From: Candidatus Woesearchaeota archaeon
GTDB taxonomy: Archaea > Nanobdellota > Nanobdellia > Nanobdellales > CAZNIQ01
DNA: 5,664 nucleotides
Reading direction: 5' to 3'
Assembly (NCBI GenBank): GCA_964573185.1
Contig: CAZNIQ010000010.1
Span: 1-5,664, forward strand
The position numbers were made by a program, and so were the translations under genes. The notes beneath the pieces are model-generated. The model did not search any database. It worked only from the letters and a program-made list of their open reading frames with translations, and was not told the DNA's origin. Positions 407-5,664 of the stretch are shown in pieces (the first letter of the stretch is position 1; the number at the start of each line of letters is the position of its first letter).

Positions 407-456
407 CAGTTGCGGAAGTAATACATCATTAATCAGTCAGTGCCGGTTTCATCAAA
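403..456 (-). ncRNA. Candidate archaeal C/D box sRNA (2'-O-methylation guide), immediately 3' of tRNA-Val
   Basis: Minus strand read: box C UUGAUGA (455-449), 12-nt spacer AACCGGCACUGA (448-437), box D' CUGA (436-433), loop UUA (432-430), box C' AUGAUGU (429-423), 13-nt spacer AUUACUUCCGCAA (422-410), box D CUGA (409-406). It is 50 nt box to box. Box order and the 12/13-nt spacers match the canonical archaeal architecture. No terminal stem is evident. The D' assignment is ambiguous because CUGA is duplicated (440-433). Confidence 0.6.
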
Positions 457-528
457 TGGGGCCGCGGGGATTCGAACCCCGGACCTCCGCCTTGTAAGGG
501 CGGCGTCATGCCGCTAGACTACGGCCCC
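457..528 (-). tRNA. tRNA-Val (anticodon UAC), 72 nt, no intron, no encoded CCA
   Basis: Minus strand 528->457: GGGGCCG UA GUCU AGCGGCA UGAC G CCGCC CUUACAA GGCGG AGGUC CGGGG UUCGAAU CCCCG CGGCCCC A. It has a 7-bp all-Watson-Crick acceptor stem, a D arm with G18G19, and a 5-bp anticodon stem. The anticodon loop is CU-UAC-AA (U33, A37). The variable loop is 5 nt, the T arm carries a UUCGAAU loop, and the discriminator is A. The following bases are UUU, not CCA. 51 of 72 positions are G/C. Confidence 0.93.
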
Positions 529-568
529 AAGTAAAATTTATACTTCAACTAAGCTTAAAAATCTTATA
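529..568. promoter_or_regulatory. Bidirectional/interleaved core-promoter spacer for polB (+) and tRNA-Val (-)
   Basis: Only 40 bp separate tRNA position +1 (528) from the polB ATG (569). The + strand has AATTTATA at 535-542, which is -34..-27 from the polB ATG. The - strand has ATTTTTAA at 562-555, which is -34..-27 from tRNA G+1. No Shine-Dalgarno motif precedes the polB ATG. Confidence 0.4.
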
Positions 569-2998
569 ATGAAAGTCTTCGTACTTTCAATAGATTATGA
601 AAGAAAAGGTGATGAGTATCTCATAAGAATTTGGGGGAGAACTGAAGATGGCAAAAAGATTCTGATTTTAGATCATTATGACTGGTATATTTATATCATT
701 CCGAAAACTGATAAAAACAAAATTTATAATGAATTAAAAAAGATAAGATATTTTTATAGAATTGAAGAAGAAAGAAAAAAATATTTAGGGAAAGAATATG
801 ACGTGTTTAAATGTTATTTGAAACCAAAAGATTATGATGATGCAAAGAAGCTATTAGATCCTTTAAAGGAACAAGGATTAATTGAGAAAAAAGAAGTGGA
901 TATTAGTTATCATAGAAAATATATTGTAGATAAAAGATTGTATCCTTTGCATTTTTATAACTTCGAATTAGAACCTATTGGAAAATTATATGGTGTTGAT
1001 ACTTACAGACTAAAATCTTTTAAAGAGTCTAACGGTAAATATGAACTAAAAGTTTTGGCTTTTGATATTGAGGTTTTGACGAACAAAGCTTTTCCTGATC
1101 CCAAAAAAGATCCTGTAATCTCAATAGCTTTTTATTCTAAAGATTTTAAGAGAGTTATTACTTATAAAGAACCTGAAGAGAAAAAAGATTATTATGTTAT
1201 TGTTAAAAGCGAATACGAATTATTTAAGAAATTTGAGGAAACAATAAAAGAGTACGACCCAGATATTCTTGTAGGATATAATTCTAATAATTTTGATCTT
1301 TGGTATTTGTATGAAAGAGCAAAGGTTCTTAACTATAAATTTACTATCGGATGGGATAGGAAAGGATTCATTTATGCTAAAAAGGGGGAGGATAAGAAAT
1401 TTAGAATTACTGGAATACAGCATATAGATTTCTATGATTTCGTTGTTCATATCTTAGGAGGACAGTTACAAAGCACTACGTATTCTTTAGATGAAGTTGC
1501 TAAAGAACTTTTAGGAGAGGGAAAAATAGAAATATCATGGGAGGAACTTTACAAGATATGGACTTCTGGCAAAAACGTAGAAAAACTTTTAGAATATAAT
1601 TTAAAGGATGCAGAGTTAACATACAAGCTTTTTGAGAAATTCAAAACAATACTATTCGAATTAACAAGAATAGTAGGTCAGAATCTTGATGACGTAGCTC
1701 ATATGACTTATGGACAATTAGTAGAATGGTATTTGATTAGAAGATCTAGAGATTTCAATGAAATAGTACCTAATAGGCCTAAACAAGAGGAAGTACAAAG
1801 AAGAAAAGCTATCACTTATAAAGGTGCATACGTTTTTGAGCCAAAGCCGGGATTGTATACTAATGTTGTAGTCTACGATTTCAGATCTCTATATCCCTCT
1901 ATAATAATTTTGCATAATGTTTCTCCAGATACATTAAAATGTGAACATGAGGAATGCAAATCTAATGGTATTACTGTTGAAACTTCTATTGGAAAATGGT
2001 ATGTATGGTTCTGTACAAAGAGGATAGGTTTTATTCCCTCTGTTTTAAAAGAAATTTTTGAGGAAAGAGCGGAACTTAAAAGGAGATTGAAAACTTTGCC
2101 AAAAGACTCTGAAGAATATAGACTTTTAGATGCAAGGCAATATTCATTAAAGATACTTGCAAACGCAACTTATGGTTACATGGGCTTTCCTAACGCTAGA
2201 TGGTATTGCTTGGATTGTGCAGCGGCGATTACAGCTTGGGGAAGAAAATACATAAGTTTTGTTGCCGAAGAAGCTAAAAAGAGAGGATTTAAAATAATTT
2301 ATGGAGATACGGATAGTATTTTTATTCAAGTAAATAATAAAGAGGAAGCATTGAAATTTTTAGAATATATTAATTCAAAATTGAAAAAACCAATGGAATT
2401 AGAGCTGGAGGATTTTTACCCAAGAGGCATATTTGTTTCTAAGAGAACCGAACTTCTTGAAGGCGCAAAAAAGAAATATGCTCTAATAAATGAAAAAGGA
2501 GAAATAAAATTAAGAGGTTTTGAAACTGTTAGAAGAGATTGGGCAGAAATTGCAAAAGAAACACAGAGAAAAGTAATTGAGATTCTGTTGAAAGAAGGAG
2601 ATGTTGAGAAAGCTATCCGATATGTTCAAGAAGTTATAGATAATCTGAAGAAACATAAAGTTCCTGTAGAGAAATTGATTTTATATGAGCAATTAAGAAA
2701 ACCTTTGGAAGAATATAAAGTTGAAGCTCCACATGTAGTTGCTGCAAAGAAATTAAAGCAAAGAGGATTTCCAGTAGGGCAAGGAACTGTCGTTTCTTAT
2801 ATAATTTGTAAAGGAGGAGAGAGAATAAGAGATAAGGTAAGATTACCTGATGAGGTAAAACCGGAAGATTATGATCCAGAGTATTACATAGAGCACCAAG
2901 TTATTCCAGCAGTAGAAAAGATTTTTGAAGCTGTAGGTGTTCCTAAGGAAAGATTGTTATCTAAAGGGCAAAAAACTTTACTTTCCTTTTTCAAGTAA
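569..2998 (+). CDS. polB: Family B DNA polymerase (archaeal replicative PolB type), 809 aa, contiguous, no intein
   Basis: All signature motifs are present in order: Exo I FDIE (1061-1072), Exo II YNSNNFDLWYL (1277-1309), Exo III YNLKDAELTY (1595-1624). Pol motif A is DFRSLYPS (1877-1900), motif B is KILANATYG (2150-2176), and motif C is YGDTDS (2300-2317); KKKYA follows downstream. By eye the sequence is collinear with Thermococcales PolB, for example ARWYCLDCAAAITAWGRKY against Pfu ARWYCKECAESVTAWGRKY, and VRRDWAEIAKETQ against VRRDWSEIAKETQ. Confidence 0.96.
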   Translation: MKVFVLSIDYERKGDEYLIRIWGRTEDGKKILILDHYDWYIYIIPKTDKNKIYNELKKIRYFYRIEEERKKYLGKEYDVFKCYLKPKDYDDAKKLLDPLKEQGLIEKKEVDISYHRKYIVDKRLYPLHFYNFELEPIGKLYGVDTYRLKSFKESNGKYELKVLAFDIEVLTNKAFPDPKKDPVISIAFYSKDFKRVITYKEPEEKKDYYVIVKSEYELFKKFEETIKEYDPDILVGYNSNNFDLWYLYERAKVLNYKFTIGWDRKGFIYAKKGEDKKFRITGIQHIDFYDFVVHILGGQLQSTTYSLDEVAKELLGEGKIEISWEELYKIWTSGKNVEKLLEYNLKDAELTYKLFEKFKTILFELTRIVGQNLDDVAHMTYGQLVEWYLIRRSRDFNEIVPNRPKQEEVQRRKAITYKGAYVFEPKPGLYTNVVVYDFRSLYPSIIILHNVSPDTLKCEHEECKSNGITVETSIGKWYVWFCTKRIGFIPSVLKEIFEERAELKRRLKTLPKDSEEYRLLDARQYSLKILANATYGYMGFPNARWYCLDCAAAITAWGRKYISFVAEEAKKRGFKIIYGDTDSIFIQVNNKEEALKFLEYINSKLKKPMELELEDFYPRGIFVSKRTELLEGAKKKYALINEKGEIKLRGFETVRRDWAEIAKETQRKVIEILLKEGDVEKAIRYVQEVIDNLKKHKVPVEKLILYEQLRKPLEEYKVEAPHVVAAKKLKQRGFPVGQGTVVSYIICKGGERIRDKVRLPDEVKPEDYDPEYYIEHQVIPAVEKIFEAVGVPKERLLSKGQKTLLSFFK
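2970..2975 (-). terminator. Oligo-T (T6) candidate archaeal terminator for the ATPase operon, embedded in the polB 3' coding end
   Basis: After the ATPase stop codon the minus strand reads TAA-AG-TTTTTT-GCCCTTTAG. The T6 run begins 2 nt after the stop codon. T runs are common in this AT-rich sequence, so support is weak. Confidence 0.3.
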
Positions 2999-4759
2999 CT
3001 TGGCTAATTCCTCAGGAGCATTATAAAACATTTCAATATATTTTTCTATCTCTTTATAATTTCTTATATTGTTTTTAACTAAATATTCTATTACTTTTGC
3101 TCTAAAATTTAGATCCGCTATTAATTCTTCATCGGAATATCCTTTAAACTCTTTTATTTCTTCTAATATTTTAGATTTCAATGCTAGGAACTCATCTTTA
3201 GCGGGAACCCATCTAAAAGCTTCCCCATAAACTATATCATCCTTTGATCGATCATAACCGTAAATTTCTACAATTTGAGCTACTCTTCTAACGTAATAAT
3301 TTCCTATTTTTGTTCTAACTAAGAATACTATTGCATCAAGGTTCTCTAAAAGAACTTTAGGTAAATTGATTGGAGGAGAAATTAATCTATCTATGACAGC
3401 TTCTACTGAATCAGCATGAATAGTTCCTAGACCGGGATGTCCTGTAGCCATTGCTTGGAACAATACATAAGCTTCCTTTCCTCTCACTTCTCCAACTATT
3501 ATATAATCTGGTCTTTGTCTCAGGGCTGCTTTTAACAAATCTATCATTTCAACAGCACCGTAATTGTTTGACCCAAATCCGGGTCTTGCAACTAAAGGCA
3601 ACCAGTTTGGATGTGGGAGCTTTAATTCAGGAGTATCTTCTATAGAAACTATCTTCATTTCTGGTTTTATGAATAATGCTATAGAGTTTAGAAATGTAGT
3701 TTTTCCTGTAGCTGTTCCACCTGCAATCAAAATAGAATGTTGTGTTTCTATTAAAGCCCAAAGATACGCAAATATTTTTATATCAGCAGTTCCGAATTTA
3801 ATCAAATCTACAAATGTTAAAGGTTCCTTTGTGAACTTTCTTATAGTAAAATTAGAACCTCTCCTAGCAATATCCTTTCCATATGTTATCTGAACTCTAG
3901 AACCATCTGGTAATGTACCATCTAATAATGGTTGTGCAACGGAAATTACTCTTCCAGTTTTTTGAGCAAGCTTCATAACAAAAGAATCTAATTCTTCTTC
4001 AGTTTCGAATACAATATTTGTCTGAATCTCCCCTATAGCAGGATGTCTATGAAATACGAATATCGGAATTCCAACACCATCACAAGAGATATCTTCAATA
4101 AAAGGATCATGCATTAAGGGTTCTATTTTACCTAAACCGATAGTGTCTCTAAAAATATAATACTTTATCTCAACTTCCCTATCTTTAGGATATTTTACCT
4201 TTAAGAACTTCCAAATTTCATTAATTTTTTTGTCAATGTAATCATAAGCTTCTTTTATATTTTTAATAGCATTAAAATCTATATCTAATTTATCTTCAAG
4301 CATTTCAACGGTTTTTTCTATAATTTCCTTATCTTTCCCATTTATTGGTGGCTCGTGGACAAAGTAGATCAATCTTTTCTTTTCTGGAACATAATGAATA
4401 TCTGCATAAGCTAATACTTTTGTTTTGCCATTTATTTTAGCTATAATTAAAGGATAAATTAGCTTTATATTTGCAGGCTTTCGCTCTATATATGTAAAGG
4501 TTTTAATTTTCTCTACTTTTGTTTCTTTAAATATATAGGACAGTTCAATACCTTTTGCACTAGATTTCTTTGATACTTTTTCTTGCTGATCTATAGGGTA
4601 AGGATAGGAAGTAACGGGAACGAATACTGGTCTGGAGGGGTGAACATATTCTTCAATAATTTTAATTGTAGGAGCTTCAAACTCCTCATATTTCTTTCTA
4701 AGCATTTCCCTTTGTGCGAGAAATTTCACCGCTTTCCTAATGATTTTCCTCAAACTCAT
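2978..4759 (-). CDS. ArlI/FlaI-family archaeal type IV filament (archaellum/pilus) assembly ATPase; GspE/VirB11 secretion-ATPase superfamily; 593 aa
   Basis: Walker A is AGGTATGKTT (GGTATGKTT at 3695-3721). Walker B/Asp box is RPDYIIVGEVRG (DYIIVGE at 3488-3508). The His box is GHPGLGTIHA. Archaeal FlaI-type N-terminal motifs are present: YFVHEPP, IEDISCDG and NFTIRKF (FTIRKF at 3833-3850). The FlaI-like C-terminal helical tail is also present (...YSDEELIADLNFRAKVIEYLVKNNIRNYKEIEKYIEMFYNAPEEL). The ATG overlaps the upstream stop codon as ATGA (4756-4759). Confidence 0.9.
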   Translation of the reverse strand: MSLRKIIRKAVKFLAQREMLRKKYEEFEAPTIKIIEEYVHPSRPVFVPVTSYPYPIDQQEKVSKKSSAKGIELSYIFKETKVEKIKTFTYIERKPANIKLIYPLIIAKINGKTKVLAYADIHYVPEKKRLIYFVHEPPINGKDKEIIEKTVEMLEDKLDIDFNAIKNIKEAYDYIDKKINEIWKFLKVKYPKDREVEIKYYIFRDTIGLGKIEPLMHDPFIEDISCDGVGIPIFVFHRHPAIGEIQTNIVFETEEELDSFVMKLAQKTGRVISVAQPLLDGTLPDGSRVQITYGKDIARRGSNFTIRKFTKEPLTFVDLIKFGTADIKIFAYLWALIETQHSILIAGGTATGKTTFLNSIALFIKPEMKIVSIEDTPELKLPHPNWLPLVARPGFGSNNYGAVEMIDLLKAALRQRPDYIIVGEVRGKEAYVLFQAMATGHPGLGTIHADSVEAVIDRLISPPINLPKVLLENLDAIVFLVRTKIGNYYVRRVAQIVEIYGYDRSKDDIVYGEAFRWVPAKDEFLALKSKILEEIKEFKGYSDEELIADLNFRAKVIEYLVKNNIRNYKEIEKYIEMFYNAPEELAKLLEKGK

Positions 4760-5097
4760 ATTATAATTATTTTATTTCCTTCTCTTTTAATAGTTATCCT
4801 ATCTGAAACAGTAACCAAAACTTTTGCATTTAAAGGATAAACTTCTGAAAGAATTAAAGAATCGTTATAAAAAAGAAGTTTTTCTGGGAATGTTAACGTT
4901 ATTGAAACATTAGATAAATTTGCTATAGTGATTGCGTTTTGAATTACATAAAGATACATTATCTCTTTTTCTTTTGTGATGTTAGAAAGTACCTTTTGAT
5001 AGGAATTGTAGATTTGATAATAGAAGAAAAGAAAAAGAGATATAACGAAAAATGTGTGAAAAAGCTTTTCTATATATTCTGCTTGGCTACGAAACAC
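4756..5097 (-). CDS. Small pilin-like / ArlF-ArlG-like protein (113 aa) with a class III-signal-like N-terminus, one hydrophobic helix and a beta-rich ectodomain
   Basis: The GTG start at 5097 is immediately preceded by an in-frame TAA (5100-5098), so this is the only start that keeps the N-terminal helix; the next Met is residue 47. The N-terminus is MFRS-QAEYIEKLFHTFFVISLFLFFYY. There are four N-x-S/T sequons (NIT, NLS, NVS, NDS). The stop codon overlaps the ATPase ATG. The N-terminal motif is shared with the upstream gene. Confidence 0.6.
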   Translation of the reverse strand: MFRSQAEYIEKLFHTFFVISLFLFFYYQIYNSYQKVLSNITKEKEIMYLYVIQNAITIANLSNVSITLTFPEKLLFYNDSLILSEVYPLNAKVLVTVSDRITIKREGNKIIII

Positions 5098-5659
5098 TTA
5101 TTCTTAATTTGTAAATAGTGAATAAAGTGCAATTAGGATAGCTTCCTTTCCTCTCATCTACTTTTTCAATAATTAGTTTTCCTTTCAATGGAAGTGTTGG
5201 TAATTCTTCGAACTCAAAAGTATAACATCTTCCAGTTATAGGATCCTTATGGATTCTACAAAATATTTCATAAATTATTTGTGTGTTCGTTGTTGATAAG
5301 TTTACAACGCAAGTAGGTTCCGATATCGCTATTGGTGAGTAAATTAGAATATTCAAAGGAATATCCTTAAGGTTTGGAGAGTATATTACATTTTGCGGAA
5401 CATTGTAAGTTACGGTAATGATATTGTTTGAAATAGAAATGTATGCATTATAATTTACATCAAAATCTATTTTATTTTCATATCTAAGTTTATCTAAAGA
5501 GTTTGCAAAATCTATCACAAATTTTTCTAATGAATCTACTTCTGATTTAATTTTATTTTTAGTTAATAATGGTTGTCCCCAAAGAATGGCAGCAGTAGCT
5601 AAAGAAATAACAACACCAGCTAAAAGAATGTAAGAAAGGTAAGAGGCTTGAAGCTTCAA
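5087..5659 (-). CDS. Pilin-like / ArlF-ArlG-like protein (190 aa as tracked) with a class III-signal-like N-terminus. The start is TTG, and the frame stays open to the window edge, so the 5' end may be incomplete.
   Basis: The codon at 5659-5657 is TTG, not ATG. The in-frame codon upstream (5662-5660) is ACC, and no stop occurs before the window ends at 5664. The N-terminus is (M)KL-QASYLSYILLAGVVISLATAAILW, followed by a soluble domain with 4 Cys and 2 sequons (NLS, NCT). Its TAG stop (5087-5089) lies 11 nt inside the next gene. Confidence 0.6.
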   Translation of the reverse strand: MKLQASYLSYILLAGVVISLATAAILWGQPLLTKNKIKSEVDSLEKFVIDFANSLDKLRYENKIDFDVNYNAYISISNNIITVTYNVPQNVIYSPNLKDIPLNILIYSPIAISEPTCVVNLSTTNTQIIYEIFCRIHKDPITGRCYTFEFEELPTLPLKGKLIIEKVDERKGSYPNCTLFTIYKLRISVS

Positions 5660-5664
5660 GGTCT

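Follow-up and report, generated by a model that had tools for sequence, protein, structure and literature searches.

Type IV filament machines combine an assembly ATPase with a polytopic membrane platform. The two are regarded as inseparable, and archaeal genomics treats them as one module that moves as a whole. The archaellum (ArlB, ArlF/G, ArlH, ArlI, ArlJ, and ArlC/D/E or ArlX) is one such machine, and the ATPase studied here shares its FlaI-like fold. In the Epd pili of Methanococcus maripaludis the pilins are processed by EppA, the substrates of which carry Q at +1. In the bacterial Tad/Flp pilus (CpaF/TadA, TadB, TadC) the platform is split, as in the ancestral cassette proposed below, where two single-T2SSF proteins follow the ATPase; it differs in that the pilins and accessory proteins of our loci are archaeal, and the split platform is unlinked in the nanoarchaeal lineage.

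The closest described archaeal systems are the Clade 2 (‘euryarchaeal-type’) pili, which comprise an arCOG01817 ATPase (such as Archaeoglobus fulgidus afGspE/AF0659), TadC, a PilA-family major pilin and an arCOG02911 minor pilin, and which include the PilB3/PilC3 adhesion pili of Haloferax (Makarova, Koonin & Albers 2016). Loci of this clade often carry two tadC-like genes, and the ATPase and TadC move as one module that swaps pilin sets (Makarova 2016). In the locus described here, in contrast, the TadC genes have disappeared and the ATPase has remained with its pilins.

Gene layout of the window and of the complete operon

The locus was analyzed in a stretch of 5,664 nucleotides (the window), which is the source contig up to its end at position 5664. 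The nearest relatives of the organism are Nanoclepta minutus and Nanopusillaceae MAGs, in agreement with an earlier note on this DNA, which had taken it for a small-genome archaeon. The annotated features are listed in Table 1.

Table 1. Features of the window, in order of position.
Feature	Coordinates	Strand	Remarks
polB, family B DNA polymerase	569-2998	+	PF00136 E=1.1e-79; outside the pilus system
PilB/afGspE-type type IV filament assembly ATPase, 593 aa	2978-4759	-	PF00437 E=1.7e-36; final gene of the operon
Small pilin-like protein, 113 aa, GTG start	4756-5097	-	Single N-terminal hydrophobic helix
DUF7289-like minor pilin, 190 aa, TTG start	5087-5659	-	Family alignment A1
PilA-like major pilin, C-terminal R-P-TGA only	5656-5664	-	Cut by the end of the window and contig

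The 3' end of the ATPase gene overlaps the convergent polB by 21 nt, which confirms that the operon ends with the ATPase, and a convergent polB is also found 3' of the ATPase in loci L002 and L010. The ATPase start overlaps the 113-aa ORF as ATGA, and the TTG start of the 190-aa ORF overlaps the stop codon of the PilA-like gene as TTGA. polB marks the 3' boundary of the operon, at the place where platform genes would otherwise sit.

Two further contigs extend the view beyond 5664: L093, which is 99.4% identical to window positions 4089-5664, and L002, with an ATPase 89% identical to that of the window. Gene content, gene order and homologies are directly visible in these sequences. A thermosome gene is followed by genes for a coiled-coil protein (168 aa in L093, 173 aa in L002), a PilA-like major pilin, the DUF7289-like minor pilin, the small pilin-like protein and the ATPase, and the convergent polB closes the array. 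The operon thus has five genes, and the minimal pilin-pilin-ATPase module of the earlier note was an appearance created by the end of the window inside the operon. That note had also allowed for partners upstream of 5664 or elsewhere in the genome; the former were not found, as the sequence beyond 5664 in L093 and L002 holds the major pilin, coiled-coil protein and thermosome genes and no platform or ArlH gene, while the latter is the option we favor, from the gene table of a related nanoarchaeote.

Linked platform genes are absent from the nanoarchaeal loci

No T2SSF/ArlJ gene and no KaiC/ArlH gene adjoins the ATPase in the window, L093 or L002, as had been noted for the window itself. Eight independent nanoarchaeal-type loci, all metagenomic (the window, L002, L003, L005, L006, L009, L010 and L091), were compared with 82 relatives that fall outside the nanoarchaeal clade (L008, L092 and L011-L090; ATPases 43-59% identical). 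The ATPase was directly followed by two T2SSF genes in all 82 of the outside loci, one matching the N-terminal and the other the C-terminal half of the ArlJ models. None of the eight nanoarchaeal-type loci contained T2SSF within 6-10 kb, as far as sequence was available. A six-frame, maximum-sensitivity HMM search of 135 kb, comprising the eight loci and the duplicates L007 and L093, detected no T2SSF remnant (best E=0.14).

In a neighbor-joining (NJ) tree, constructed without bootstrap values, the eight nanoarchaeal ATPases formed one clade, which lay within platform-bearing lineages and had the ATPases of L092 and L008, both platform-bearing loci, as its sister group. The absence of linked platform genes is lineage-wide and derived. 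A ‘rearranged filament system’, as the earlier note had it, pointed in the right direction. The five-gene order is kept down to ~50% ATPase identity in the nanoarchaeal-type loci; in L009 the ATPase stands alone, with no pilin genes nearby.

The same arrangement upstream of the ATPase (coiled-coil protein, PilA, DUF7289-like protein, small protein with K-G before Q, ATPase) is present in Aenigmatarchaeota and Micrarchaeota. A seven-gene DPANN cassette with this gene order, found in MAGs of these groups (L011, L015, L018, L022, L041) and in L092, contains PilA in 1-3 copies and an ATPase 46-59% identical to the nanoarchaeal one, and goes on with two T2SSF half-platform genes, whereas the nanoarchaeal operon ends with the ATPase. 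The two tadC-like genes in each of the 82 relatives, and the PilA-like major pilin with a larger, beta-rich minor pilin upstream of our ATPase, resemble Clade 2.

Type of the ATPase and source of its platform

Judged by its profile matches, the ATPase is a member of the T2SSE/VirB11-family type IV filament ATPases (PF00437, T2SSE, 126 bits, cutoff 24.9), and CpaF is a clear homolog (168 bits). Alignment with afGspE showed intact catalytic motifs (Walker A GGTATGKTT, Asp box IVSIEDTPEL, Walker B RPDYIIVGEVRG and His box ATGHPGLGTIHA), and the enzyme still looks functional. The best PDB match was afGspE (2OAP, 399.5 bits), ahead of Sulfolobus acidocaldarius FlaI (311 bits), and a weak match to PilB3_C was also obtained; 2OAP belongs to Clade 2, arCOG01817 (Makarova, Koonin & Albers 2016). 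By bit score, the ATPase is closer to this afGspE/PilB3 type than to FlaI. The ATPase of the Epd pili, in contrast, belongs to Clade 1 (Makarova 2016).

The earlier note had taken the archaellum as its frame of reference, and a rearranged archaellum (arl) operon, with ArlH and ArlJ encoded distally, would be in line with several observations: FlaI is the best NCBIfam match of the ATPase (NF058587, 442.2 bits), orthologs are annotated ‘flagellar protein FlaI’ by JGI, the major subunit is weakly similar to Arch_flagellin, and archaellum genes are scattered in the nanoarchaeote Nst1. However, the FlaI score falls short of the equivalog cutoff of 550 and resembles those of ATPases from platform-bearing, non-archaellum relatives (427-430 bits), among which its phylogenetic neighbors lie, and Nst1 has a separate archaellum-clade ATPase. 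The neighboring genes encode PilA-type and DUF7289-type pilins, and no gene for ArlH (KaiC-like), ArlJ, archaellins or ArlF/G was found in the window, L093, L002 or the other nanoarchaeal loci. We regard an archaellum as very improbable. Since the ATPase is not ArlI and the system is no archaellum, a missing ArlH is the normal state; the real anomaly of the locus is the missing platform.

We propose instead that the ancestor was a seven-gene cassette, widespread in DPANN and other archaea, whose last two genes each encoded one half of an ArlJ/TadC-like membrane platform. Both half-platform genes would have been deleted from the cassette or moved out of it, probably once, in the nanoarchaeal lineage, and the remaining five genes would have kept their order. 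The ATPase would then power pilin extraction and polymerization through a platform from another locus. The most likely reading, which we consider reasonably probable, is that the region represents the 3' portion of a nanoarchaeal operon of five genes for a type IV pilus of the adhesion-pilus type, derived from this cassette by truncation and with its platform supplied in trans.

Supply in trans is suggested by a published SNP table for a different nanoarchaeote, from Yellowstone, restricted to genes that had SNP coverage (Jarett et al. 2018). The table includes an ortholog of the window ATPase, 2735310919, in the same gene context, with 14.7 non-synonymous vs 97.6 synonymous SNPs per kb, indicative of constraint (purifying selection). 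Four T2SSF/FlaJ genes are listed, all at other loci: T2SSF 2735310502 adjoins ATPase 503, T2SSF 733 and 734 adjoin ATPase 732, and FlaJ 2735310521 lies between L4P and RFC genes with no listed ATPase neighbor (Jarett et al. 2018). None of the SNP-covered genes is plainly an orphan platform of the split type that would match, so that a dedicated relocated partner is hypothetical.

The same table bears on a different explanation, in which two motors share one platform. Throughout the nanoarchaeal clade, the genome would encode no platform dedicated to this ATPase, which would use the split TadC-like platform encoded next to a paralogous ATPase; the two motors might take turns on it, for example with different pilin sets or between extension and retraction. 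Three of the four T2SSF/FlaJ genes (502; 733, 734) do adjoin another ATPase and 919 is the only listed ATPase without such a neighbor (Jarett et al. 2018), and ATPase/TadC modules have been argued to serve different pilin sets (Makarova 2016). Nevertheless, these counts cover SNP-covered genes only, and FlaJ 2735310521 could be the partner (Jarett et al. 2018). A shared platform is possible but, in our view, rather unlikely; if true, it would be the first archaeal case and would break the assumed one-to-one ATPase/TadC module. As to retraction, no archaeal ATPase is known to have this role. Less likely still is decay or repurposing, in which the platform is lost, the filament is no longer built, and the ATPase and small proteins are vanishing or have taken another role. 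The solitary ATPase of L009, the ~80-residue segment gone from the minor pilin of the window and L002, and the genome reduction typical of the group are compatible with it, but the conserved five-gene order, the intact catalytic motifs, the SNP pattern of the ortholog (Jarett et al. 2018), and ATPase branch lengths similar to those of platform-bearing relatives in the NJ tree argue against it, and we think it improbable. A whole symbiont clade has kept pilins and motor together and dropped the platform genes, making the locus a concrete test of how specific the motor-platform pairing is.

The pilin-like proteins and the predicted filament

The two small proteins preceding the ATPase were correctly recognized as pilin-like in the earlier note: both have class-III-signal-like N-termini, with a short basic leader, Q, and a hydrophobic helix. 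The N-termini (slash, presumed cleavage site) are MKL/QASYLSYILLAGVV for the 190-aa protein, which has L rather than G/A/S at the presumed -1 position, and MFRS/QAEYIEKLF, with E6 present, for the 113-aa protein. In canonical loci, orthologs of both have K-G/Q. The Q at the presumed +1 position, after a K/R-G/S leader, is a likeness to the Epd pilins.

The family of the 190-aa protein has an invariant Q4 and four invariant cysteines, and the window and L002 members have lost the ~80-residue segment (alignment A1). It has only 11 cluster representatives among 1.84 billion; in 10 Aenigmatarchaeota/Micrarchaeota loci a homolog is encoded at this position. The window protein had no direct Pfam match, including to DUF7289 (PF23960), against which its L010 ortholog gave E=0.14, whereas A1 matched the DUF7289-annotated L092 protein, encoded directly upstream of the ATPase, with an HHalign probability of 97.8% (E=7e-13). 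The major pilin (162 aa in L093, 154 aa in L002; MKGITPIIAVILLL...TLRP before the stop codon, with ...TYTLRP in L093) starts as MKG/ITPIIAVILLLLMTV in both contigs, and its matches to Pfam Pilin_N (16-23 bits, cutoff 25.2) and Arch_flagellin (19.9-27.1 bits, cutoff 29.5) were weak.

We hypothesize that a prepilin peptidase would process pilins with K/R-[G/S/L] leaders before Q, and that these pilins would then be assembled into a filament, which may plausibly be used in host-cell attachment. The cleavage is predicted from the N-terminal sequences. No recognizable prepilin peptidase was present in two nanoarchaeal genomes analyzed (Makarova et al. 2016), which makes the processing uncertain.

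Nanoarchaeota live attached to host cells, and in the Saccharibacteria, analogous bacterial episymbionts, attachment is driven by type IV pili; this analogy makes the operon a candidate host-attachment apparatus. Three points temper its interest. Scattered operons are a known trait of nanoarchaeal genomes, earlier reports describe multiple pilus systems in these archaea, and the function here is predicted.

The 113-aa protein has orthologs in the same position in L002, L003, L006 and L010, and in Aenigmatarchaeota and Micrarchaeota its place is taken by a small gene with K-G/Q...E6 (for example MKGQYLVLEHVFFF); the Nanoclepta/Nanopusillaceae orthologs are without the Q. Automatic gene callers cut this ORF to 67 aa, with loss of its conserved transmembrane N-terminus.

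Gene content of the operon

The ATPase gene converges on polB and is preceded on the minus strand by two smaller ORFs (see table). Its start shares an ATGA with the stop of the 113-aa ORF, and its 3' end overlaps polB by 21 nt. This convergent overlap is retained in the related loci L002 and L010, and its occurrence in three independent assemblies rules out an assembly artefact. The minus strand opens with agaccTTGAag, which reads R-P-stop in one frame and provides the TTG of the 190-aa gene in another, so a third gene extends past the window, the end of which coincides with the end of the source contig (ENA k141_168976).

Looking up the exact 190-aa sequence led to NCBI contig RZUK01000034.1 (L093), which matches window 4089-5664 at 99.4% identity and continues 1.9 kb beyond it. 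Its gene order runs from the thermosome 3' end through a coiled-coil protein (168 aa, proline-rich tail) and a 162-aa protein that starts MKGITPIIAVILLLLMTVAAG and ends TLRP* to the 190-aa gene, then the small ORF and the ATPase. The same five genes are found in L002, a 43-kb contig of GCA_054017035.1 with an ATPase 89% identical to that of the window, flanked by the thermosome on one side and convergent polB on the other. The earlier note had described a minimal pilin-pilin-ATPase module; L093 and L002 show instead an operon of five genes. In neither do a platform gene and ArlH stand just upstream of position 5664; the thermosome, coiled-coil and pilin genes lie there, and L002 contains no T2SSF gene (one half of an ArlJ/TadC-like platform) or KaiC-like gene within 10 kb.

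Features of the window
Feature	Position	Strand	Remarks
polB	569-2998	+	Family B DNA polymerase; single uninterrupted 809-aa gene
593-aa ATPase	2978-4759	-	T2SSE domain PF00437, E = 1.7e-36
113-aa ORF	4756-5097	-	GTG start
190-aa ORF	5087-5659	-	TTG start; DUF7289-like minor pilin
tRNA-Val(TAC)	456-529	-	5136-5209 (+) of the window's locus, L001; ARAGORN; Rfam tRNA 71.6 bits
Gene of at least 394 aa	375 to 1	-	Reaches L001 6471; divergent from polB; exits the window's left end

A local GC peak of 0.36-0.39 (elsewhere ~0.25-0.35), in the interval separating polB from the divergent gene, is accounted for by the tRNA gene. A Pfam search with the divergent gene gave no match at E ≤ 1. In Nanoarchaeum equitans polB is split into two genes, unlike the uninterrupted gene of the window lineage.

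The ATPase and its pilin-like neighbors

Alignment with Archaeoglobus fulgidus afGspE showed that the Walker A, Asp box, Walker B and His box motifs of the ATPase are all intact. The top NCBIfam model was FlaI, with a score of 442 bits (cutoff 550), similar to the 427-430 bits obtained for the ATPases of clearly non-archaellum, platform-bearing relatives. The closest solved relative is afGspE (2OAP, 399.5 bits), labelled a typical Clade 2, arCOG01817 ATPase (Makarova et al. 2016), with Sulfolobus acidocaldarius FlaI scoring 311 bits. A separate archaellum-clade ATPase is present in the nanoarchaeote Nst1. As judged from sequence, the window protein is a pilus ATPase and not an archaellum ATPase, for which an adjacent ArlH would not be expected. 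The archaellum framing adopted earlier was thus wrong, the protein falling below the FlaI cutoff and nearer to afGspE.

KaiC-like genes occur at some distance from related ATPases: one Nanopusillaceae contig has PF06745 gene fragments (L007 17040-17436) ~7 kb downstream of its ATPase, and a 'KaiC domain protein, Ph0284 family' (2735310911) lies 8 genes from the ATPase ortholog in a Yellowstone nanoarchaeote genome (PMC6142677). Neither is adjacent to the ATPase, and they were not counted as ArlH.

The 190-aa family is very narrow, with only 11 cluster representatives among 1.84 billion. Its alignment shows invariant Q4, Y10, L12, P30 and K34 and four invariant cysteines, which suggest two disulfides in this DUF7289-like minor pilin. 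Comparison of the family profile with the DUF7289-annotated protein immediately upstream of the ATPase in locus L092 gave an HHalign probability of 97.8% (E = 7e-13), the common segments being M-[KR]-x-Q...W-G-x-P-L...K and R-P-x-K-D-P-I-T-G. Ten loci from Aenigmatarchaeota and Micrarchaeota contained homologs detected with the family HMM; in 9 of the 10 the homolog lies ~420-470 bp upstream of the ATPase, and the leaders are MKG|Q, MKKG|Q and MKA|Q. An AlphaFold model of the 190-aa protein computed without an alignment had a pLDDT of 45, and its helix-then-strands layout was not taken as evidence. In the window and L002 the minor pilin (190 and 193 aa) is missing a middle segment of ~80 residues that the 275-282-aa orthologs from Nanoclepta, Nanopusillaceae, L005, L010 and L091 all have.

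The small gene intervening between this homolog and the ATPase in Aenigmatarchaeota and Micrarchaeota begins MKG|QYLVLEHVFFF or KG|QTIIVEFVLFF, with Q at +1 and E at +6, a pattern that also fits the window (MFRS|QAEYIEK) and L002 (MLRS|QAELVEK). Cleavage of the small protein is uncertain, because its counterparts in Nanoclepta and Nanopusillaceae lack the Q. For the 113-aa ORF, conservation with L002 and with the equivalent gene in other phyla supports the GTG start at 5097. Automatic calls in two source assemblies begin at an internal ATG of this ORF, and the resulting 67-aa product drops the leader and hydrophobic helix that are conserved at the N-terminus. The upstream PilA-like subunit gave Pilin_N and Arch_flagellin matches below threshold only. 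The coiled-coil protein is conserved across phyla (Aenigmatarchaeota and Micrarchaeota), with the N-terminal motif EEYE-[LI]-VP-x-x-P-[IL]-x-KLE. By their sequences, the small proteins of the operon are predicted to be conserved pilin-like components.

Absence of linked platform genes

In the Woesearchaeota locus L008 and in L092, two T2SSF genes directly follow the ATPase, one corresponding to the N-terminal half of ArlJ models and the other to the C-terminal half. Scanning a genome collection with the ATPase, by exact 8-residue patterns, gave 80 further loci from Aenigmatarchaeota, Bathyarchaeia, a Micrarchaeota and a Methanofastidiosia MAG, with ATPases 43-54% identical to the query; nanoarchaeal genomes were not among the matches. 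A first T2SSF gene follows the ATPase in all 80, and a second comes right after it in every contig that extends far enough. No T2SSF gene was present in the available sequence of eight independent loci, comprising the window (L001), L002, L003 (Nanoclepta minutus), L005, L006 (a Nanopusillaceae MAG), L009, L010 and L091. A maximum-sensitivity search of all six frames in 135 kb, covering these eight loci, the duplicate L007 and L093, with HMMs derived from the platform genes (80 in first position, 79 in second), gave a best match of E = 0.14.

Neighbour-joining with afGspE as the root (no bootstrap) groups the eight platform-less ATPases in a single clade, which is sister to L092 plus L008 and nested among platform-bearing lineages. 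The order of the other five genes is kept in most members. The simplest reading of these sequences is that the two terminal genes were lost or relocated once, in the ancestor of the clade. The claim that the ATPase lacks a linked platform is upheld and sharpened: the absence is real, derived and clade-wide.

The hydrothermal vent locus L009 indicates a further break-up of the operon: its solitary ATPase (7001-8962) has a RadA gene with an intein on one side and unrelated genes on the other, and pilin genes are absent from the vicinity.

Nanoclepta-type loci carry an extra pilin-like gene of 126-144 aa (L003 10614-11045, L005 4211-4645 and L006 10430-10810, all on the minus strand), which is convergent, lies two genes downstream of the ATPase, and has the leader ...[KR]xQG|LP[FL][SN]TIVLA. 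It is absent in the window, where polB fills that side. A platform hidden in the convergent downstream gene of these loci was ruled out, since the encoded proteins are either soluble (212-253 aa) or pilin-like (126-144 aa).

Possible source of the platform

Protein searches for a platform, in this genome or that of a sister lineage, returned only 30 close relatives when a Woesearchaeota half-platform was the query, and led to Pacearchaeota, with no nanoarchaea, when a distant match (P0150) was used. A gene table for the Yellowstone nanoarchaeote, with consecutive IMG identifiers, is available (Additional file 3, Jarett et al. 2018, PMC6142677). In it, 'FlaI' 2735310919 (1785 nt) adjoins the single-TM hypotheticals 920 (384 nt) and 921 (849 nt), followed by hypothetical 922 (552 nt) and thermosome 923, a stretch that, from this gene order, is clearly recognizable as the ortholog of the window operon. 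The genome has four FlaJ/TadC homologs: T2SSF 502 adjoins ATPase 503, T2SSF 733 and 734 adjoin ATPase 732, and FlaJ 521 has ribosomal protein L4P (520) and RFC (523) on either side, with 522 unlisted (PMC6142677). Platform genes therefore exist in such genomes, at a distance from the window-type ATPase.

Given this table from a related nanoarchaeote, the most likely mechanism is that the platform would be supplied to the window ATPase in trans. A more novel arrangement than simple supply in trans, in which the platform is shared with a paralogous motor, is a serious though less likely alternative. Most of the Yellowstone platform genes already have an ATPase neighbor. ATPase/TadC modules are reported to be able to serve different pilin sets (Makarova et al. 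2016). No prepilin peptidase was recognized in two nanoarchaea (Makarova et al. 2016).

The ATPase ortholog 919 has 14.7 non-synonymous versus 97.6 synonymous SNPs per kb (PMC6142677), a pattern that argues for constraint. The corresponding non-synonymous values are 9.5 for the small protein, 21.3 for the minor pilin and 46.8 for the coiled-coil protein (2735310922), so that the most variable member of the operon by this measure is the cytoplasmic-looking one.
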